DNA from: a virus
Taxonomy: Duplodnaviria; Heunggongvirae; Uroviricota; Caudoviricetes
IMG/VR virus record: IMGVR_UViG_2636416110_000005
Strand: one strand, 5' to 3'
Length of the DNA: 43,746 nucleotides
Shown here: positions 4,765 through 20,758 of the stretch, piece by piece
Layout: each line of letters starts with the position of its first letter
How positions within the stretch are numbered: the first letter of the stretch is position 1
The notes under the pieces: model-generated
Seen by the model: the letters and a program-made list of their open reading frames with translations, nothing else
What the model was told of the DNA's origin: nothing
The model's database searches: none
Position numbers and translations under genes: made by a program

Positions 4765-4812
4765 CTTTAAAAAGGGCGGCAGAGCAGTCACGGAGTAAAA
4801 CTGATACCGCCA
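4765..4812 (-). terminator. Rho-independent terminator forming the DicF 3' end
   Basis: GGCGG ... CCGCC stem within the DicF 3' half followed by TTTTT on the transcribed strand. Confidence 0.6.
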
Positions 4813-4826
4813 AACGTCACCAGAAA
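4774..4826 (-). ncRNA. dicF: DicF small RNA (53 nt)
   Basis: Reverse complement of 4774..4826 reads TTTCTGGTGACGTTTGGCGGTATCAGTTTTACTCCGTGACTGCTCTGCCGCCC, the remembered DicF sequence; followed on the minus strand by a T-run (4765..4773). Confidence 0.88.
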
Positions 4827-10187: not shown

Positions 10188-10459
10188 ATACAGCGAACTC
10201 CATTGGTTTAGTTGGATATTTACTGTGCTGGACAAAAACGGTTTGCGGGGAAATCTTAGTTAAGTAGAATGACTGCGGGTGCTTGAGGCTATCTGCCTCG
10301 GGCATGGACACCAACGGCAGATAGAGAAAAGCCCCAGTTAACATTACGCGTCCTGCAAGACGCTTAACATTAATCTGAGGCCAATTTCATGCTAGACACA
10401 TGTAGGTTAGCCTCTTACGTGCCGAAAGGCACGGAGAAGCAGGCTATTGTTAACACCAA

Positions 10460-12080
10460 GCTGTAATGTCCCCTTTGAACCATTCTAAAATGTCCCCAGA
10501 CAATTCTCTGGGGGATTTTTCATGATCAAAGAGACTGTTACGATGAGTCATAAGGAACTCCACCGACTTCAGATTATTCAGGAACAAGCTGCGGCACGCA
10601 TTGGCATTTCTATTCGGCAGGTTAAACGTCTGGTGCAACGGTATAGAAATGAAGGGCCTTCTGGTCTGGTTTCCCACCGACGTGGAAAGCGTCCTAATAA
10701 TTCCTTTTCTACTGAATTCAGAGCAACAGTAATTTCACTCCTCAAAGGCCGTTACGCTGATTTTGGACCTACGTTTGCGTGCGAAAAATTGCGCGAGATA
10801 CACGGTTTATCTTTATCCGTTGAAACTCTCAGAAAGTGGATGATAGAAGAGGGGTTATGGCGTGAACGCCGTCGTAAAATTGCCCGTATATATCAACGCC
10901 GCATGCGACGACCATCTTACGGTGAACTGATCCAGATTGATGGCTCACCTCATGACTGGTTTGAAAATCGAGGCCCCAGATGTACACTGATCGTTTTCAT
11001 TGATGATGCCACCAGTGCGTTGATGGCGTTGCGTTTTGTGCCTGCTGAAACAACCCGGGCTTACATGGAAACCCTCCGGGGTTACCTTAATGATCATGGC
11101 GTACCGCTCGCTCTCTACTCTGATAGACACAGTATATTCAGGGTAAATAACCCAGAGCGGGAAGGTGAGCTGACCCAGTTCACTCGTGCGATAAAGACAC
11201 TGGGCATCGAGCCAATCCATGCCAACAGCCCGCAGGCAAAAGGGCGGGTAGAGCGCGCCAATCAGACACTACAGGACAGGCTGGTCAAAGAAATGCGGCT
11301 TCAGAATATCAGTGATATTGAAACAGCAAATGCATGGTTGCCGACCTTTATTGAAGCCTATAACAACCGGTTCGCTACGTCGCCTCGTACTACTGATAAT
11401 GCTCATCTTGATGTGCACCATTCTGAAGAGGAACTGGGTTATATCTTCAGCCTACAGGCGAAGCGCGTTCTGTCTAAAAATCTCACTTTCCAGTACAAAA
11501 GCAGTGCGTTTCAGGTACGCAGTGAGGGCCGGGGATATCGACTTAGGCATTCGGTTGTTACTGTATGCGAGAACTTTGACGGTGAAATTAACGTTCTGTA
11601 TGACGGGAAAGCGCTGGGCTGGGAAAAGTATGTTGATGGCCCGGAGCCTATACCACTGGATGATGAAAAGAGTGTCCATGAACGAGTGGATAATGCCCGT
11701 ATTGATTTACGCTCAAAATACTATGTTAAACCTAAAGCTGACCATCCCTGGCTTACGCGCCGAACGCAAAGTCATCAGCAAGTTAAGCCCCCGAAGTTAC
11801 CTAAAAAGAAGCCTGATCCCGATAAAAAAGATTGAAACCAAGATCGATTCGGTTGAGTGCATATCCATTCATAGGGTAGATTCTTAAGTCGCGTTTCTGG
11901 TGTTCATTTTCGGGTGGTTTGTTACTTGTTTTACCGGGGATATGCCAGAAACGCGCTGAGTCAGTCTGGGCGGTGCGCGTAATGAGGCGTTATGGTAAAT
12001 AGCCTATGCTAATGTCCGCTAAGAGCAAGAAGCGGAAGTTGGCAGTTTTGTGGACTGTCCCCACAAAAGTGACTACAGAA
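10460..12080 (+). mobile_element. ISNCY-like insertion sequence (boundaries approximate)
   Basis: Transposase ORF flanked by repeated TGTCCCC-containing motifs (10465..10473, 10488..10496, about 12048..12056); terminal inverted repeats could not be defined by eye. Confidence 0.35.
10522..11835 (+). CDS. DDE transposase, ISNCY-like family
   Basis: 437-aa ORF with N-terminal HTH-like segment and integrase-core-like region (IDGSPHDWF ... DDATS ... lysine-rich C-terminus); family from memory, not a search. Confidence 0.75.
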   Translation: MIKETVTMSHKELHRLQIIQEQAAARIGISIRQVKRLVQRYRNEGPSGLVSHRRGKRPNNSFSTEFRATVISLLKGRYADFGPTFACEKLREIHGLSLSVETLRKWMIEEGLWRERRRKIARIYQRRMRRPSYGELIQIDGSPHDWFENRGPRCTLIVFIDDATSALMALRFVPAETTRAYMETLRGYLNDHGVPLALYSDRHSIFRVNNPEREGELTQFTRAIKTLGIEPIHANSPQAKGRVERANQTLQDRLVKEMRLQNISDIETANAWLPTFIEAYNNRFATSPRTTDNAHLDVHHSEEELGYIFSLQAKRVLSKNLTFQYKSSAFQVRSEGRGYRLRHSVVTVCENFDGEINVLYDGKALGWEKYVDGPEPIPLDDEKSVHERVDNARIDLRSKYYVKPKADHPWLTRRTQSHQQVKPPKLPKKKPDPDKKD

Positions 12081-12271
12081 ATAGTTGCAATTCATAATTG
12101 ATCATGGGTTGTCAGTTAAACTCGTGGCGATTTAAATAGACTAATTGGGAGTGCGTCCATTACTTATATCTTGTAATGTTAACTATCAGAAATGATACAA
12201 AGATAATATGTCTTTAAAGAAAAGGCTGATGGCGAAAAGTGGCCCGATGAGGGCCACAATACGGCTGTCAC

Positions 12272-12604
12272 TTAGACGTAAATATCAATGGTGCCAGCGG
12301 TATTTGTATCGTCTTTTTTCTCTTCTTTTTTATCAGGCTGAACTGTCGCGTCTTCATTCTTTTTCTCTGCCTGCTGCCTTAACAACTGCTCCAGTTGAGC
12401 CCAGAGGCTTTCAATTTGCTTCTGTACCAATGCAGCCATTTCTTTTTTCTGCTGTGTCGTCATCCCCTCTTCCGATGAGATTTTCCCAAGCTTTTCAGTC
12501 AGCACCTGAATTTGTCTTGTGATTTTGGCTATTTCTGATGTTCCTTCCGGGGCGGAGTTGTTTGAAATAACGGTTGAGGTATTTCCCTGAATTGTGACAG
12601 ACAT
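12272..12604 (-). CDS. flxA: FlxA-like protein
   Basis: 110-aa ORF MSVTIQGNTSTVISNNSAPEGTSEIAKITRQIQVLTEKLGK...; matches remembered K-12 FlxA; AGGAG RBS. Confidence 0.85.
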   Translation of the reverse strand: MSVTIQGNTSTVISNNSAPEGTSEIAKITRQIQVLTEKLGKISSEEGMTTQQKKEMAALVQKQIESLWAQLEQLLRQQAEKKNEDATVQPDKKEEKKDDTNTAGTIDIYV

Positions 12605-12627
12605 AGATTTCTCCTTTTAAAAAAGCA

Positions 12628-12654
12628 CTATCGGCATGCACAAAAAAATCTTTA
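12628..12654 (-). promoter_or_regulatory. sigma-28 (FliA) type promoter upstream of flxA
   Basis: On the minus strand TAAAGATT-N11-GCCGATAG about 25 nt upstream of the flxA ATG; consensus is TAAAGTTT-N11-GCCGATAA. Confidence 0.7.
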
Positions 12655-12806
12655 ATCGTATTTCTTGTGTCATTAATTGTTTGATGTTCAGATTGTTTTC
12701 CTCGCGGGCTGGCGCGCCTCAGAAAGTAAAGCTTGTTGACAGGGGTAAACGTTCGGCAATAATTTTCTGCCGCATGCGGGTGTTGCATAAAACGTGTTAC
12801 GTTCCT

Positions 12807-13112
12807 TTATCGACAGGTCAGGTCACCGCTCACCCGCCGACGAGAAAGCAACACTGACATGCTAAAGCAAAAAATAGATGAATAAGTTGAGTTGTGCATA
12901 TGTAGCCTGACCGTCACAAAGTATATGGTGTCTGTACCAGTAAGATGATGGCCGGACTCTTTAAAAACGAGCTGACCTGCACAATACAGGATGGACTTAG
13001 CAATGGCTGCTCCTGGCACAAAGCGGACAGTGATCACCGTTCTTACGACTACTTTCTGACTTCCTTCGTGACTTGCCCTAAGCATGTTGTAGTGCGATAC
13101 TTGTAATGACAT
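12807..13112 (-). CDS. ydfV: YdfV-like hypothetical protein
   Basis: 101-aa ORF, same length and position as K-12 ydfV; putative start codon lies inside the relO repeats, so coding status is uncertain. Confidence 0.35.
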   Translation of the reverse strand: MSLQVSHYNMLRASHEGSQKVVVRTVITVRFVPGAAIAKSILYCAGQLVFKESGHHLTGTDTIYFVTVRLHMHNSTYSSIFCFSMSVLLSRRRVSGDLTCR

Positions 13113-13124
13113 TTGTAATTACAA
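13101..13124 (+). promoter_or_regulatory. relBE operator (relO-like repeats)
   Basis: Tandem TTGTAATGACAT / TTGTAATTACAA just upstream of relB RBS AGAGG. Confidence 0.7.
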
Positions 13125-13136
13125 GAGGTGTAAGAC

Positions 13137-13376
13137 ATGGGTAGCATTAACCTGCGTATTGACGATGAACTTAAAGCGCGTTCTTACGCCGCGCTTGAAA
13201 AAATGGGTGTAACTCCTTCTGAAGCGCTTCGTCTCATGCTCGAGTATATCGCTGACAATGAACGCTTGCCGTTCAAACAGACACTCCTGAGTGATGAAGA
13301 TGCTGAACTTGTGGAGATAGTGAAAGAACGGCTTCGTAATCCTAAGCCAGTACGTGTGACGCTGGATGAACTCTGA
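13137..13376 (+). CDS. relB: RelB antitoxin
   Basis: 79-aa ORF MGSINLRIDDELKARSYAALEKMGVTPSEALRLMLEYIADNERLPF...; matches remembered RelB. Confidence 0.9.
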   Translation: MGSINLRIDDELKARSYAALEKMGVTPSEALRLMLEYIADNERLPFKQTLLSDEDAELVEIVKERLRNPKPVRVTLDEL

Positions 13377-13663
13377 TGGCGTATTTTCTGGATTTTGACG
13401 AGCGGGCACTAAAGGAATGGCGAAAGCTGGGCTCGACGGTACGTGAACAGTTGAAAAAGAAGCTGGTTGAAGTACTTGAGTCACCCCGGATTGAAGCAAA
13501 CAAGCTCCGTGGTATGCCTGATTGTTACAAGATTAAGCTCCGGTCTTCAGGCTATCGCCTTGTATACCAGGTTATAGACGAGAAAGTTGTCGTTTTCGTG
13601 ATTTCTGTTGGGAAAAGAGAACGCTCGGAAGTATATAGCGAGGCGGTCAAACGCATTCTCTGA
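13376..13663 (+). CDS. relE: RelE mRNA interferase toxin
   Basis: 95-aa ORF MAYFLDFDERALKEWRKLGSTVREQLKKKLVEVLESPRIEANKLRGMPDCYKIKLRSSGYRLVYQ...; start overlaps relB stop. Confidence 0.9.
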   Translation: MAYFLDFDERALKEWRKLGSTVREQLKKKLVEVLESPRIEANKLRGMPDCYKIKLRSSGYRLVYQVIDEKVVVFVISVGKRERSEVYSEAVKRIL

Positions 13664-13734
13664 ACCAAAGCATGACATCTCTGTTTCGCACCGAAGGTGA
13701 CACTTCTGCTTTGCGTTGACAGGAGAAGCAGGCT

Positions 13735-13890
13735 ATGAAGCAGCAAAAGGCGATGTTAATCGCCCTGATCGTCATCTGTTTAACCGTCATAGTGACGGCA
13801 CTGGTAACGAGGAAAGACCTCTGCGAGGTACGAATCCGAACCGGCCAGACGGAGGTCGCTGTCTTCACAGCTTACGAACCTGAGGAGTAA
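13735..13890 (+). CDS. hokD: Hok-family membrane toxin HokD (RelF)
   Basis: Read by hand (below ORF-track cutoff): MKQQKAMLIALIVICLTVIVTALVTRKDLCEVRIRTGQTEVAVFTAYEPEE (51 aa), downstream of relE. Confidence 0.85.
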   Translation: MKQQKAMLIALIVICLTVIVTALVTRKDLCEVRIRTGQTEVAVFTAYEPEE

Positions 13891-13958
13891 GAGACCCGGC
13901 GGGGGAGAAATCCCTCGCCACCTCTGATGTGGCAGGCATCCTCAACGCACCCGCACTT

Positions 13959-13985
13959 AACCCGCTTCGGCGGGTTTTTGTTTTT
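13959..13985 (+). terminator. Rho-independent terminator after hokD
   Basis: CCCGC-TTCG-GCGGG hairpin followed by TTTTTGTTTTT. Confidence 0.7.
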
Positions 13986-14106
13986 ATTTTCAACGCGTTT
14001 GAAGTTCTGGACGGTGCCGGAATAGAATCAAAAATACTTAAGTAGCGCGCAGGGATAAGAGGGATGGTCCCTTAAAGGGGAGAGCTAATTATCCGGAAGG
14101 ATTCTG

Positions 14107-14358
14107 ATGATGAACATCGAAGAACTGCGTAAAATTTTTTGTGAAGATGGCCTCTATGCTGTGTGCGTTGAAAATGGAAATCTTGTTAGTCATTACCGCA
14201 TTATGTGTTTGCGAAAGAATGGGGCTGCGTTAATTAATTTTGTGGATGCTCGGGTCACGGACGGATTTATCTTGCGCGAAGGTGAGTTTGTCACTTCATT
14301 ACAGGCATTGAAAGAGATCGGAATAAAAGCTGGCTTTTCTGCTTTTTCAGGAGAATAA
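14107..14358 (+). CDS. rem: Rem-like protein
   Basis: 83-aa ORF MMNIEELRKIFCEDGLYAVCVENGNLVSHYRIMCLRKNGAALINFVDARV...; matches remembered K-12 Rem. Confidence 0.8.
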   Translation: MMNIEELRKIFCEDGLYAVCVENGNLVSHYRIMCLRKNGAALINFVDARVTDGFILREGEFVTSLQALKEIGIKAGFSAFSGE

Positions 14359-14424
14359 ACTCATCTACAATCTTGCGCGGGGCTGAACTCCCGCTGAGTA
14401 ACACCGTGCCACCGGAGAAAACCG

Positions 14425-14703
14425 ATGGCACGCAACGCAAAATATTACAATTCTGATAATTCGCCCGTTCTTGCCTGCACGCACGGGCGGTATTCTCACG
14501 CATTCAAGTCTGAATGGTTCCAGCACCCTCCATGCACTGCAGAACAGGCCGAATGGCTGATTCATTCTTACCGCAGGCGCGGGTTCGAGGTTAAGAAAGC
14601 TCTCAGTCTCGACTATCGGCACTGGATAATCTCTGTCAGGCTGCCTTATTCCGAACGCCCACCACGTGCGTCCCGCACTTTCCAGCAACGGATCTGGAGG
14701 TAA
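14425..14703 (+). CDS. hypothetical protein (92 aa)
   Basis: ORF whose stop TAA (14701..14703) immediately precedes the GTG start of ydfU, with GGAGG inside its 3' end serving as the ydfU SD. Confidence 0.5.
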   Translation: MARNAKYYNSDNSPVLACTHGRYSHAFKSEWFQHPPCTAEQAEWLIHSYRRRGFEVKKALSLDYRHWIISVRLPYSERPPRASRTFQQRIWR

Positions 14704-17154: not shown

Positions 17155-17454
17155 AAAAATTCCTTAATACTGATAACTTGGCGCACTATACACACGTTCC
17201 TGAAGAAAGCTATAGTTTTTTGATGGGGTTGAAGATGGCTGGATGTCTAAAATAAACATTGCTTCATATGTTCAACTATGCGTTAATGATTGCGTCGGTT
17301 TGAAGAACAGACGATATACGAAGTAGTTTACTAAAGCAGTTCTCATTTCAGGTGTTATTCACTTATTCCTTCTTTGAGTCTCTCCAATTAAGTACGAAGT
17401 CGTTTCTGTTATGCAAACCATTTATGCCGAAAGGCTCAAGTTAAGGAATGTAGA

Positions 17455-17670
17455 ATGTCAAATAAAATGACTGGTTTAGTAAAATGGTTTAACGCTGATA
17501 AAGGTTTCGGCTTTATTTCTCCTGTTGATGGTAGTAAAGATGTGTTTGTGCATTTTTCTGCGATTCAGAATGATAATTATCGAACCTTATTTGAAGGTCA
17601 AAAGGTTACCTTCTCTATAGAGAGTGGTGCTAAAGGTCCTGCAGCAGCAAATGTCATCATTACTGATTAA
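17455..17670 (+). CDS. cspB: cold-shock protein CspB
   Basis: 71-aa [74 protein letters not shown]; divergent from cspF with about 300-nt spacer. Confidence 0.88.
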
Positions 17671-17952
17671 AATTCATCGCTCGTCTGTATACGATAACGA
17701 AGAAGGCTGATGCCTGAGTAGAGATACGGACAGAGTAGTGAATATTGGATCTCTTTAATAAAAAGTAAGGAGGTCCAATACATGAAACAATGGCTAGCAT
17801 ATTTGGCAAAATCTTAATCAGGAAAAGTATGCTAACCATTGTGGTGAAGTGCAGGTTTGCTGCATGAATAGTTTTACAGCAGAAGCTAACTGCTGGCATG
17901 GCAAAACAAAGTGCGTAAGTGGATGACTCCCACAAAAAGCACCACAATCTCA

Positions 17953-19979: not shown

Positions 19980-20341
19980 GGTAATATTAAATCGGAACAT
20001 TTACATCGCGGAATGTAAAATTTAAATAAAAAGGACTCTTCCATGAGCCAAAATTCCTGAAATCTTAAGGGTAAGATAAAAGGTCTTAATCAGAATGACA
20101 CGTTTTATTAATAAATAAAGCTATTCTTTCATTGCTGTGTTTTTCTTTACAAAAGTAATCCTTGCTATGGGTGGTTAATCATGCGTTAATGGTGTTCTGG
20201 TTTGTTACAAATTTATCTGAAGCAGTCATTGTTATAATTTTATTATTTGTACCTCTTGAGATTTCCTTGTTGGTTTTTCTCTCTGATATTTTTTTTCGGA
20301 CCATTCTGCCCAAGGGCTAATTTCTTCAAAAGGTAATAATT

Positions 20342-20554
20342 ATGTCTAACAAAATGACTGGTTTAGTGAAATGGTTTAACCCTGAAAAAGGTTTTGGTTT
20401 CATCACGCCGAAAGATGGCAGCAAAGATGTGTTTGTCCATTTCTCAGCAATTCAGAGCAACGATTTCAAAACATTAACTGAGAATCAGGAAGTTGAATTT
20501 GGTATTGAGAACGGACCTAAAGGTCCTGCCGCTGTTCATGTAGTGGCGCTTTGA
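20342..20554 (+). CDS. cspI: cold-shock protein CspI
   Basis: 70-aa [73 protein letters not shown]. Confidence 0.88.
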
Positions 20555-20758
20555 GGTAGACAATATTACAAACCATATTCACTTTAGATGCCCGTGTTGT
20601 CATGGTTCCCAGTATAGAACATCATCTTTTGATGTTTCTGACATGAATCCTTTCGGGGCAAAATGTATCTTTTGTAAATCAATGATGATTACATTTGATA
20701 ATATTTCACAATACTTAAATGCCAGCCGTCTGTCGTTGGATTTAAAAAAGTGAAAATG

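Follow-up and report, generated by a model that had tools for sequence, protein, structure and literature searches.

relBE, hokD and the relO operator

The window, that is, the whole 43,746-nucleotide stretch of DNA that was analyzed, carries relB, relE and hokD in this order on the plus strand behind the relBE promoter and the relO operator, and a reading frame on the minus strand, ydfV, starts within the operator.

12807-13112, minus strand: ydfV ORF, 101 codons, chimeric according to ORF calls and alignments of other copies
13073-13101, plus strand: relBE promoter, read from the sequence (-35 TTGCCC at 13073-13078, 17-nt spacer, -10 GATACT at 13096-13101)
13101-13124: relO operator, two 12-bp half-sites with four [A/T]TGT[A/C]A hexads, an exact match to the published half-sites
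13137-13376, plus strand: relB, antitoxin and ribbon-helix-helix repressor, 79 aa
13376-13663, plus strand: relE, toxin and ribosome-dependent mRNA endonuclease, 95 aa
13735-13890, plus strand: hokD (relF), Hok-family membrane toxin, 51 aa
13940-13986, plus strand: 3' end of the hok mRNA, with fbi CCTCAACGCACCC at 13940-13952 and an intrinsic terminator at 13959-13976 followed by a T run (terminator scan)

The initial annotation had called relB, relE and a 51-aa hokD here, and the Pfam, NCBIfam and PDB matches bore out these calls. RelB matched Pfam RelB (1e-32) and the NCBIfam equivalog NF008412 (133 bits; cut-off 96), and a PDB search returned chain A of 4FXE (E. coli RelBE) as a full-length match. 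RelE matched Pfam ParE_toxin/RelE (2e-13) and NCBIfam RelE_StbE TIGR02385 (54.7 bits; cut-off 27.9) and was matched over its full length by RelE in 4FXE and 4V7J, while HokD matched Pfam HOK_GEF (1e-23) and PHROG 251 (3e-33). The relB stop codon and the relE start codon overlap in TGATG (13374-13378). The alignment to K-12 relBEF that had been proposed as a check gave 100% DNA identity between window positions 12600-14100 and K-12 derivatives, in which the annotation reads flxA/ydfV/relB/relE/hokD. The region is the long-known transcription unit relBEF (relB-relE-hokD) of E. coli, and relBE, relO, relF/hokD and the overlap of ydfV with relO have all been published already, including in a 2025 paper on the 'relBE-ydfV excludon' (PMC12288877).

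The tandem repeats upstream of relB had been taken for relO, and this identification held. The left half-site TTGTAATGACAT (13101-13112) and the right half-site TTGTAATTACAA (13113-13124) agree letter for letter with the half-sites mapped through mutagenesis and footprinting (PMC2812701), and a repeat search of the sequence also returned both of them (repeats D3 and I7). The published operator covers -10 to +17 of the relBE transcription start (PMC2812701), in agreement with the promoter position read here; a scan with a strict consensus did not return the relBE promoter. The ATG of ydfV lies inside the repeats, as had been stated. It occupies 13112-13110 on the minus strand, as the complement of CAT, the last three bases of the left half-site, and falls at about +2 to +4 of the relBE transcript if GATACT at 13096-13101 is the -10 element.

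Experiments have shown that relF/hokD is co-transcribed with relBE and depends on PrelBEF (PMC3598666), and autorepression with conditional cooperativity and Lon-dependent turnover of RelB were described on sequence identical to that of the window (PMC2812701; PMC3507626). According to this literature, RelB, aided by RelE, represses the relBE promoter through the two 12-bp relO half-sites over -10 and +1, and relBE transcription reads through relE into hokD and ends at the terminator of hok itself. In the predicted fold of the relBEF RNA, fbi may pair with GCGUUGA just upstream of the hokD Shine-Dalgarno sequence, over 8 bp. A sub-threshold isrK-like match was also seen over the hairpins at the 3' end of hokD.

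The transposon ending in relBE

The DNA between the upstream part of the hokD locus and the hokD coding sequence has the structure of a transposon, with the following features.

10277-10447, plus strand: displaced hokD mRNA leader (Rfam RF01794, 104 bits at 10277-10448, model positions 1-157)
10433-10447: left copy of the target-site duplication (TSD) GGAGAAGCAGGCTAT, 15 bp, exact direct repeat abutting IRL
10448-10473, plus strand: left terminal inverted repeat (IRL) TGTTAACACCAAGCTGTAATGTCCCC, pairing with the reverse complement of 13696-13721
10522-11835, plus strand: transposase, 437 aa, ISNCY / IS1202-like ISEsa1 family (NCBIfam, Pfam and PGAP names)
12014-12037: stem-loop GTCCGCT-N10-AGCGGAa, read from the sequence, end of the part common to all ISEsa1-like copies
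12272-12604, minus strand: flxA (Pfam FlxA, 2e-14), cargo of this version of the transposon, between IRL and IRR
13005-13028: left boundary of the ~715-bp relBE module, degenerate stem-loop GGCTGCT-N10-AGCGGAC (junction comparison)
13696-13721, plus strand: right terminal inverted repeat (IRR) GGTGACACTTCTGCTTTGCGTTGACA, 33 nt past the relE stop codon
13722-13736: right copy of the TSD GGAGAAGCAGGCTAT, exact direct repeat abutting IRR

A complete ISEsa1-like transposon of the IS1202 family, 3,274 bp long, occupies 10448-13721 in the order IRL, transposase, variable cargo (here flxA), relBE and IRR. Its right TSD copy holds the Shine-Dalgarno sequence of hokD, GGAG (13722-13725), and the AT of the hokD ATG, and the similarity to prophages without relBE starts at this copy. 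IRL and the reverse complement of IRR match at 19 of 26 ungapped positions and have TGT...ACA ends; none of 200,000 random 26-mer pairs drawn from the window reached 19. In addition, a candidate inner-repeat copy was found 24 nt inward on the left (10479-10497, 15/19 matches), with a weaker candidate 25 nt inward on the right (about 13671-13689, only 13/19 matches). The transposase scored 456 bits against NCBIfam NF033594 transpos_ISNCY_2 (cut-off 250) and contains the Pfam domains HTH_32/29/28 and rve_3, and in other genomes PGAP names it 'IS1202-like element ISEsa1 family transposase'. The K-12 gene 'ydfW' corresponds to its last 49 codons.

Similarity to other ISEsa1-like copies stopped at about 12030-12040, and the cargo starts after the stem-loop at 12014-12037. 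Since the part common to copies with different cargoes ends there, a smaller autonomous IS may lie inside the larger unit. Only one Qin-like phage carried the cargo segment 12605-13006 in the phage collection searched, and the ORFs of this segment gave no PHROG match. The relBE module that follows comprises relBE, its promoter, relO and about 130 bp upstream, and forms the last ~715 bp of the transposon. In 7 different left contexts, its left junction fell at an identical position. The boundary stem-loop in the window (13005-13028) matches the element at 12014-12037 at 23 of 28 positions; in plasmid copies, the boundary reads GTCCGCT-N10-AGCGGAC, followed by a T run on the minus strand. A 13-nt inverted repeat (13006-13018 / 13717-13729), considered as the ends of a relBE 'cassette', was superseded by IRL/IRR and the boundary stem-loop.

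The leader at 10277-10447 contains a tac element GGGTGCTTGAGG at 10277-10288, the target region of the Sok antisense RNA, the hok Shine-Dalgarno sequence and a truncated mok frame, which starts at 10389 and on translation runs for 25 codons to a stop inside IRL. In a B-strain prophage that lacks relBE, RF01794 also matched immediately ahead of hokD, and joining 10277-10447 to the sequence after the insert rebuilt this uninterrupted hokD locus at 431 of ~435 positions. In the uninterrupted B-strain locus, the same fbi pairs with the 5' tac element (fold z = -6.7). Beside hokD itself, no hok leader or Sok was found, RF01794 giving no match in 12000-14600 at E ≤ 1 or in 13640-13760 at E ≤ 10, and in other relBE-hok fusions RF01794 was likewise absent beside the Hok gene. 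The 58 nt that separate relE from hokD were considered as a remnant of a hok leader, but when aligned locally to three canonical leaders they did no better than shuffled sequences (342, 866 and 1748 of 2000 shuffles scored equally well); this stretch is the right end of the transposon.

The transposon would thus have inserted in the Shine-Dalgarno/start-codon region of a prophage hokD and duplicated 15 bp. Such an insertion would have left the promoter, tac element, mok frame and Sok target of hokD 3.3 kb upstream, and a bare hokD Shine-Dalgarno and coding sequence directly downstream of the outward-reading relBE operon. hokD probably follows relE because a relBE-carrying transposon inserted into the hokD ribosome-binding site. 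With the leader 3,274 bp away from the coding sequence, hokD cannot come under mok coupling or Sok control in cis and depends on read-through from relBE (PMC3598666). Furthermore, the insertion leaves the hok promoter and leader immediately ahead of the transposase gene, which could be expressed from that promoter, possibly under the influence of Sok.

The evidence for the transposon is comparative throughout. An identical IRL was found in 154 loci. Among the 151 copies that came from other sequences with enough left flank (43 distinct left flanks), GGAG started 15-16 nt before IRL in 134 copies, representing 29 of the 43 distinct flanks. Nearly all GGAG-flanked copies were preceded by hok-leader sequence, so that the transposon occupies one and the same position in diverse hok genes; about 14 of the distinct IRL flanks were not hok-like. 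At the other end, IRR abuts many different sequences at exactly the same base. All 66 of the 66 complete elements contained relB, relE and relO, and TSDs of 15-16 bp were found in at least 8 other combinations of target and size. Duplications of their own, of 15-16 bp, flank independent insertions: an element of 6,093 bp in a hok of IncHI2 type, one of 12,843 bp that carries ncr/chr cargo, and versions of 4,237, 4,600 and 7,694 bp. Cytochrome b and CDF transporter genes, or the ncr/chr metal-resistance genes, serve as alternative cargoes. Judged from the copies compared, relBE is shown to be the unvarying module at the right end of an ISEsa1-like transposon of the IS1202 family.

The ~715-bp relBE module was also found without the transposase and flanking duplications in several contexts (loci L003, L005, L015, L019 and L026), so other routes of rearrangement must exist. 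It was considered as a free-standing miniature transposon, which the missing duplications in L005, L015, L019 and L026 leave unsupported.

The 15-bp repeats and junctions could instead have arisen by homologous or illegitimate recombination between hok loci, whose Shine-Dalgarno/start stretch is their most conserved part and could concentrate crossovers. However, the repeats in every case adjoin one pair of inverted-repeat termini with TGT/ACA ends, a transposase gene typical of the family lies beside IRL, the length of the repeats is constant at 15-16 bp, and a target other than hok shows this structure as well, with a different repeat of 16 bp. We therefore regard recombination in place of transposition as extremely improbable.

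It had also been suggested that the operon stacks two toxin classes that could act in phage exclusion or prophage maintenance. We found no support for this: the insertion explains the gene order, and RelB, RelE, HokD and YdfV gave no match to the PADLOC defence models at E ≤ 0.01. An evolved module of a type II and a type I toxin would be in keeping with the occurrence of the arrangement in a lambdoid prophage, in the inducible-looking phage genome PhiR42_1 and in about 21% of complete E. coli genomes, with the recurrence of relBE-Hok fusions on plasmids, and with the observation that the relF part is the most abundant fragment after toxin-induced mRNA cleavage (PMC3598666). However, target-specific insertion accounts for the recurrence, each fusion having its own 15-16-bp duplication and displaced leader, and insertions in the opposite orientation (L019) and at non-hok sites occur as well. 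The Hok partners are 33-37% identical whereas relBE is about 99% identical, which shows repeated capture and not co-evolution. An evolved two-toxin module is quite improbable on these grounds, and the two-toxin 'stack' is most likely a by-product of insertion and not a designed defence module. relBE would act as the addiction or stabilization module of the transposon itself, replacing the hok/sok addiction that the insertion disrupted on the host plasmid or prophage.

The ydfV reading frame

The ydfV frame spans the left boundary of the relBE module. Codons 1-33 (13112-13014), like the stem-loop next to them, are part of the conserved module, and codons ~37-101 lie within the flxA cargo segment. 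Depending on the DNA that adjoins the module, the ORF from the ydfV ATG is 33, 40, 50, 62, 64, 101 or 110 codons long. YdfV matched only 31 protein clusters among 5.8 billion, all from the same DNA context, and many of these clusters had swapped N- or C-termini in the alignment. No family match to YdfV was found in Pfam, NCBIfam or PHROG, and no Shine-Dalgarno sequence lies ahead of its ATG. Substitutions among the copies were 5 nonsynonymous to 1 synonymous and gave no sign of purifying selection, six changes being too few to exclude weak selection. All 101 codons were kept in 62 of the 63 flxA-cargo copies; unannotated ORFs of 97-137 codons are common within the same 2.8 kb. A consensus scan of the minus strand returned no sigma-70 promoter for ydfV, and inspection of 13113-13300 by hand gave weak hexamers only.

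The initial annotation had held that either ydfV is not a real gene or its expression is coupled to RelBE autoregulation. This was a reasonable pair of alternatives, and the first is favoured by the confinement of the matching clusters to one DNA context, the length set by the flank, the missing Shine-Dalgarno sequence and protein family, and the 5:1 substitutions. Most likely, ydfV is not a conserved protein but an ORF that stays open by chance across the relBE promoter module into the cargo. Were it a real protein gene, co-regulated with relBE and encoding a third functional component of the toxin-antitoxin system, this would suit the RefSeq annotation 'protein YdfV' and the intact ORF in the flxA-cargo copies. 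ydfV RNA rose while relBE RNA fell under four antibiotics (PMC12288877) and also rose in microaerobiosis (PMC8910356), and the region was mutated in antibiotic-cycling experiments, as cited in PMC12288877. Against a protein gene, no homologue was found outside this exact DNA among 5.8 billion proteins, and the first 33 codons alone are constant, the rest being replaced in every other context. Moreover, the protein was not detected although its RNA rose strongly (PMC8910356), and the phenotype of ydfV::Tn10 was ascribed to reduced RelB (PMC5436854) and, as described in PMC12288877, was reversed by relB and not by ydfV. We consider a functional YdfV protein unlikely.

The coupling stood as well, though for any transcript in the ydfV direction and as a matter of geometry, and it has already been published: relBE and ydfV are listed as a divergent 'excludon' with reciprocal expression (PMC12288877). 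To include 13112, an RNA in the ydfV direction has to start within the transcribed region of relBE and pass through relO, -10 and -35, and it must therefore be mechanically coupled to relBE. Antisense overlap, promoter occlusion and a RelB2E roadblock could each contribute to this coupling, which would fit the published 'excludon' behaviour without any YdfV protein. The same geometry and the reciprocal expression would also be expected if the RNA were a functional non-coding antisense that silences relBE under stress, by interfering with its transcription and by exposing the 5' overlap to cleavage by RNase III. On plasmids, the left-edge stem-loop of the module and the minus-strand T run after it resemble a terminator, so a short antisense RNA could be an original feature of the module; in the window, however, this stem is degenerate (13005-13028). 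No minus-strand promoter was identified, the reciprocal levels could passively reflect changes in RelB2E occupancy, and no experiment in the literature consulted separates cause from correlation. We regard a functional antisense RNA as a real possibility that falls somewhat short of probable.

Taken together, the best explanation of the locus, which we hold to be highly probable, is that it is the relBEF unit, that its relBE part is the right-end module of a transposon inserted in hokD, and that ydfV encodes no conserved protein.

Significance and comparison with known systems

On balance, we lean towards a broader reading, namely that relBE is the fixed end of a functional ISEsa1-type transposon that inserts in one orientation at the Shine-Dalgarno/start region of hok genes with 15-16-bp TSDs, and that this element is undescribed in the searchable literature. 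The structural part of this reading is well supported by the sequences compared. If it is correct, the insertion frees Hok from mok/Sok and puts it under read-through controlled by RelB/RelE, and the element replaces a type I addiction module with a type II module of its own. The K-12 'relBEF operon', 'ydfV' and 'ydfW' would all be by-products of one insertion, a simple mechanical account of three oddities of the K-12 annotation (a Hok without Sok, the orphan 'ydfV' and the fragment 'ydfW') and a caution against reading function into the two-toxin order or reading YdfV as a protein. The delimitation of the transposon at 10448-13721 and the chimeric nature of the 'YdfV' ORF go beyond the literature searched. 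A type II toxin-antitoxin (TA) pair is here a constant part of a transposon and reads outward into the target gene, which is relevant to the spread of relBE onto IncHI2 and IncF resistance plasmids with metal-resistance cargo.

K-12 relBEF, in the cryptic Qin prophage, has the same DNA over 12600-14100 (100%), the 4FXE proteins and the relO half-sites, and it has the same neighbours, flxA and ydfV upstream and rem and ydfU downstream. In contrast, K-12 MG1655 has lost everything to the left of window position 11648, where the K-12 homology begins, including IRL, most of the transposase and the hokD leader. The window keeps about 1.4 kb that is deleted in K-12, and K-12 MG1655 is a deletion derivative of the full arrangement. 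Since the window retains the left part lost in K-12, it reveals where the arrangement came from.

The closest type I systems compared were the hok/mok/sok loci, namely parB of plasmid R1 and the hokD of lambdoid prophages such as that of E. coli B strains. The uninterrupted hokD locus shares the HokD protein, the fbi in the 3' UTR and the terminator, with 99.5% DNA identity from the Shine-Dalgarno sequence on, and the leader at 10277-10447 fits the same RNA model as these loci. The leader adjoins the hok coding sequence in canonical loci, whereas 3,274 bp lie between them here.

Tn3-family transposons reportedly carry type II TA pairs within their transposition module. As in these, the TA pair is constant here while other passengers vary, and it plausibly stabilizes the element or its carrier. 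However, the transposase family and the mechanism differ, and here the TA pair lies at the very end of the element, pointing outward through the terminal repeat and into the target gene.

Among the divergent 'excludons', relBE/ydfV is itself listed (PMC12288877), and the geometry here forces a 5' overlap. The difference is that the partner here appears to be a context-dependent ORF and not a conserved gene.

The transposon itself is closest to the IS1202 family and its 'transporter IS' (ISAjo2, ISEsa1, tISKpn21), for which a transposase of about 394-507 aa and imperfect terminal inverted repeats of 24-26 bp are the family criteria (PMC10132070). The ends (TGT...ACA, with an imperfect repeat of ~26 bp), the ~440-aa HTH + DDE transposase and the unusually long TSD are shared, as is the orientation-specific use of a defined target (PMC10132070); the candidate inner-repeat copies near the ends may correspond to the second inner-repeat copy of the family. 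ISEsa1 is given in ISfinder, as cited in PMC10132070, with 1,609 bp, a 15/22 terminal repeat, no detectable TSD and no known target; our comparison supplies the right end, TSD and target for ISEsa1-type elements, which that study could not find. IS1202 elements measure 1.5-1.6 kb, whereas the duplication-bounded unit here measures 2.3-12.8 kb and always ends in the relBE module, and its target is the Shine-Dalgarno/start region of hok and not a dif-like site.

The relB-relE-hokD operon and its operator

The initial annotation had described relB, relE and a 51-aa hokD downstream of relO-like repeats, and ORF calls together with Pfam, NCBIfam and PDB searches agree with these gene assignments and their positions.

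Features of the relBE-hokD region
12807-13112, - strand: ydfV ORF, 101 codons
13073-13101, + strand: relBE promoter, TTGCCC (13073-13078), 17-nt spacer, GATACT (13096-13101), read from the sequence
13137-13376, + strand: relB, ORF of 79 aa
13376-13663, + strand: relE, ORF of 95 aa, TGATG overlap with relB
13735-13890, + strand: hokD, ORF of 51 aa
13959-13976 plus T run, + strand: hok terminator, from a terminator scan

Pfam matched RelB (1e-32), ParE_toxin/RelE (2e-13) and HOK_GEF (1e-23), NCBIfam scored above cut-off for both the RelB equivalog and RelE_StbE, and RelB and RelE gave full-length PDB matches to the solved E. coli RelB2E2 complex (4FXE). Alignment to K-12 relBEF gave 100% identity over window 12600-14100, a segment annotated in K-12 derivatives as flxA, ydfV, relB, relE and hokD, and at least 80% of it occurs in 1,149 of the 5,426 complete E. 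coli genomes. The repeats are indeed relO: the two 12-mers TTGTAATGACAT (13101-13112) and TTGTAATTACAA (13113-13124) exactly match the half-sites defined via scanning mutagenesis and hydroxyl-radical footprinting (PMC2812701), and the ydfV ATG does lie within them, as the complement of 13110-13112 in the left half-site. The promoter hexamers place the relBE transcript start near 13108-13109, in agreement with the published span of relO from -10 to +17 (PMC2812701).

For this identical sequence, the cited literature describes repression of the relBE promoter by RelB2E complexes on relO, derepression on RelB loss or RelE excess, and transcription through relE into hokD that ends at the hok terminator. 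Previous work also showed that relF/hokD is co-transcribed with relBE, as a single full-length RNA detected by all three probes, and that induction of this RNA was abolished when PrelBEF was deleted (PMC3598666). A near-consensus sigma-70-like promoter (12736-12763, + strand; TTGACA-16 nt-AATAAT, 11/12 matches) was observed in the flxA-ydfV spacer, directed towards relBE and antisense to the ydfV ORF; this candidate might be the source of the transcripts 'larger than full-length relBEF' and of the residual relE/relF signal reported for the promoter deletion (PMC3598666). Since relBEF co-transcription and the relBE-ydfV excludon have both been published, the operon, its operator and the ydfV overlap were already known. 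The earlier observation is confirmed, and its interpretation is partly supported.

A transposon between hokD and its leader

Canonical hok genes require an upstream leader with tac, the mok start and the Sok target. Nothing near hokD matched the Rfam hok-leader model (RF01794), even at permissive thresholds. In a B-strain prophage without relBE, the model matches directly upstream of an identical hokD (115 bits), and similarity between that locus and the window begins only at the hokD Shine-Dalgarno (SD) sequence. Scanning the whole window located the missing leader at 10277-10448 (RF01794, 104 bits, full model), 3.3 kb upstream of hokD and with no hok CDS after it; this is the displaced leader of hokD. 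It ends in ...GGAGAAGCAGGCTAT, where unrelated DNA begins, and an exact direct copy of these 15 nt, made up of the hokD SD and the AT of its ATG, lies at 13722-13736. With 10277-10447 spliced onto the DNA beyond the insert, the intact B-strain locus is recovered at 431 of about 435 positions.

The insert between the 15-nt repeats comprises 3,274 bp (10448-13721). Its start, TGTTAACACCAAGCTGTAATGTCCCC, and its end, GGTGACACTTCTGCTTTGCGTTGACA, pair as an ungapped inverted repeat (19/26 matches, TGT...ACA termini), a score reached by none of 200,000 random 26-mer pairs drawn from the window. A 437-aa transposase (HTH + rve) adjoins the left terminal repeat (IRL); it matches the NCBIfam ISNCY_2 model with 456 bits and bears the PGAP name 'IS1202-like element ISEsa1 family transposase'. 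It is followed by a stem-loop (12014-12037), cargo, a degenerate stem-loop (13005-13028), the relBE promoter with relO, relB, relE and, 33 nt past the relE stop, the right terminal repeat (IRR). The insert is an ISEsa1-like transposon of the IS1202 family, flanked by 15 bp of duplicated target sequence. Its cargo consists of flxA and the 3' two-thirds of 'ydfV'; being transposon cargo, flxA is not a phage gene proper. A sigma-28-type promoter-like sequence recognized by eye upstream of flxA (12625-12655, - strand; TAAAGATT-N11-GCCGATAG) is consistent with the description of flxA as FliA-regulated.

K-12 MG1655 has sequence in common only from 11648 rightwards, and its 'ydfW' is a C-terminal transposase remnant of 49 codons; K-12 has therefore lost IRL and the hok leader by deletion. 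PhiR42_1, an apparently complete 48.7-kb phage, has the same full arrangement as the window. Matches to the DicF sRNA (4774-4825, - strand) and to two cspA-type 5' UTR thermoregulators (17294-17686 and 20196-20581, + strand) are as expected for a Qin-like prophage.

The insertion has deprived hokD of its promoter, of mok coupling and of its Sok target. The mok frame now runs for 25 codons to a stop inside IRL, and the hok promoter (TAGAAT, 10265-10270) and leader are directed into IRL and towards the transposase gene, so the hok promoter could contribute to transposase expression. HokD synthesis would now rely on read-through from relBE and the SD of hokD itself. In the predicted relE-hokD RNA fold, the transposon right end (13710-13717, UGCGUUGA) pairs with the hok fbi (13942-13949, UCAACGCA) over 8 bp just upstream of the hokD SD, and this modelled pairing could mimic the lost tac-fbi closure. 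A sub-threshold isrK-like Rfam match (13899-13980; 25 bits vs 50) spans the hairpin and terminator of the hok 3' UTR; the B-strain hokD locus gives it too, so it stems from hok 3' structure and not from a separate sRNA.

Copies of the element and their targets

The right end of the element stops at exactly the same base beside many different sequences. An exact IRL search returned 154 loci, spread over genomes, plasmids, metagenomes and viral contigs; both ends were present in 66 (element size 2.3-12.8 kb), every one of which contains relB, relE and relO.

Element sizes, cargo and locations
3.3 kb: flxA; this window and PhiR42_1
6.1 kb: cytochrome b and CDF transporter; IncHI2-like plasmids
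12.8 kb (L034): ncrABCY/chrB/HupE; K. pneumoniae IncFII plasmid NZ_CP056374.1, 129.1-141.98 kb

The cargo of the 12.8-kb element comprises nickel/cobalt (ncrABCY), chromate (chrB) and HupE/UreJ genes; the element ends in relBE and has a duplication of 16 bp (GGAGTTGTATGGGTCC), and transposase matches of its type occur in 689 plasmids of Klebsiella, Enterobacter, Citrobacter and Salmonella.

Each distinct insertion has a 15-16-bp duplication of its own (GGAGAAGCAGGCTAT, GGAGAAGAAGGCCAT(G), GGAGATGTATGGGTCC, GGAGTTGTATGGGTCC); at one locus (L151) the repeat is 6 bp only. A left flank of 40 nt or more is available for 151 copies (43 distinct flanks); GGAG begins 15-16 nt before IRL in 134 of these copies and 29 of these distinct flanks, nearly always with the hok-leader motif AGCCTCTTA..GCCG.AAGGCAA upstream, and about 14 distinct flanks do not resemble hok. 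Hok proteins downstream of different relBE-hok fusions are 33-37% identical to HokD, relBE being ~99% identical, and none of the other fusions examined has kept a leader adjoining hok. In a Citrobacter portucalensis contig (L019, 2540-2730), IRR, the relBE end, adjoins the reverse complement of GGAGAAGAAGGCCAT, past which a hok leader follows, complete and inverted (RF01794, 95 bits); here the same hok target was hit in the opposite orientation. These flanks are most simply read as the result of repeated insertion, mostly in one orientation, into the hok SD/start region. In a metagenome contig (L105, OLJC01000099.1, near 11715-11755), the right repeat …TGCTTTGCGTTGACA leads, across just 15 nt (GGAGAAAAAGGCTAT), into the left repeat, a layout that could represent a tandem insertion of two elements at a single target or else a circle-type junction. 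The ~715-bp relBE module, the right-end part of the element with the relBE promoter, relO, relB and relE, also occurs at several sites without transposase and without duplications.

ydfV, the paired toxins and the IS1202 family

No family match for YdfV was found in Pfam, NCBIfam or PHROG, and among 5.8 billion proteins it matched only 31 clusters, all from this DNA and many with a different N- or C-terminus. The first 33 residues, encoded inside the relBE module, are constant in every context when translated from the relO ATG; beyond them the ORF runs into neighbouring DNA, giving 33, 33, 40, 50, 62, 64, 101 or 110 codons, and only the flxA-cargo version yields the 101-aa form. No SD sequence precedes the ydfV ATG, and several chance ORFs of 97-137 codons lie within the same 2.8 kb. 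The six single substitutions among 63 ydfV copies (5 nonsynonymous, 1 synonymous) are, at low power, compatible with no constraint. ydfV is still part of the uncharacterised 'y-ome'; YdfV protein was undetected while ydfV RNA rose about 28-fold (PMC8910356), and a ydfV::Tn10 suppressor was reversed by relB and not by ydfV (PMC12288877; PMC5436854). The initial annotation held that either ydfV is not a real gene or its expression is coupled to RelBE autoregulation. The flank-dependent ORF, missing SD and lack of families favour the former, making it quite likely that ydfV is not a conserved protein gene; YdfV is probably a chance ORF. Coupling also stands, as a matter of geometry: a transcript in the ydfV direction would have to begin inside the relBE transcribed region and cross relO and the promoter, which makes coupling unavoidable. 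A 2025 study classed relBE-ydfV as a divergent 'excludon', its two RNAs changing reciprocally under four antibiotics (PMC12288877). A scan found no minus-strand promoter for this transcript. Plasmid versions of the module have a minus-strand T run after the left-edge stem-loop, whose stem is degenerate in the window, and the sequence looks as if it were the normal end of a short divergent RNA.

A role of the two stacked toxins in phage exclusion or prophage maintenance, as proposed initially, is not supported: defence-system models (PADLOC) had no match for RelB, RelE, HokD or YdfV, the insertion accounts for the layout, and an adaptive explanation is not needed. relBE may act as the transposon's stabilising module, standing in for the hok/sok function disrupted by insertion. 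What is new is the context, an ISEsa1-type transposon that ends in relBE, targets hok and accounts for the operon anatomy; the literature searched contained no paper linking ISEsa1/IS1202 elements with relBE or hok.

The stem-loops at 12014-12037 and 13005-13028 (GTCCGCT-N10-AGCGGAC type, 23/28 alike with one reverse-complemented) flank the cargo in inverted orientation, and in other copies their arms are swapped for an 11-nt sequence (TATAGTCATTC in locus L011, its reverse complement in L026); possible roles for them are as terminators or cargo-exchange sites. A smaller unit reaching to the 12014-12037 stem-loop may also be mobile, as the region common to cargo-different copies stops there, at ISfinder's end of ISEsa1. 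A published account of the family lists ISEsa1 with 1,609 bp, a weak 15/22 TIR, no detectable target-site duplication and no known target (PMC10132070). It also describes an inner repeat copy near each end of IS1202-family elements; in the window element the inward match is 15/19 on the left (24 nt in) and 13/19 on the right (25 nt in). In its termini, TIR and transposase size the window element fits the IS1202 family, whose members end in TGT/ACA, have imperfect TIRs of 24-26 bp and encode transposases of 394-507 aa, with target-site duplications of 3-5 bp, 16-28 bp or none (PMC10132070).
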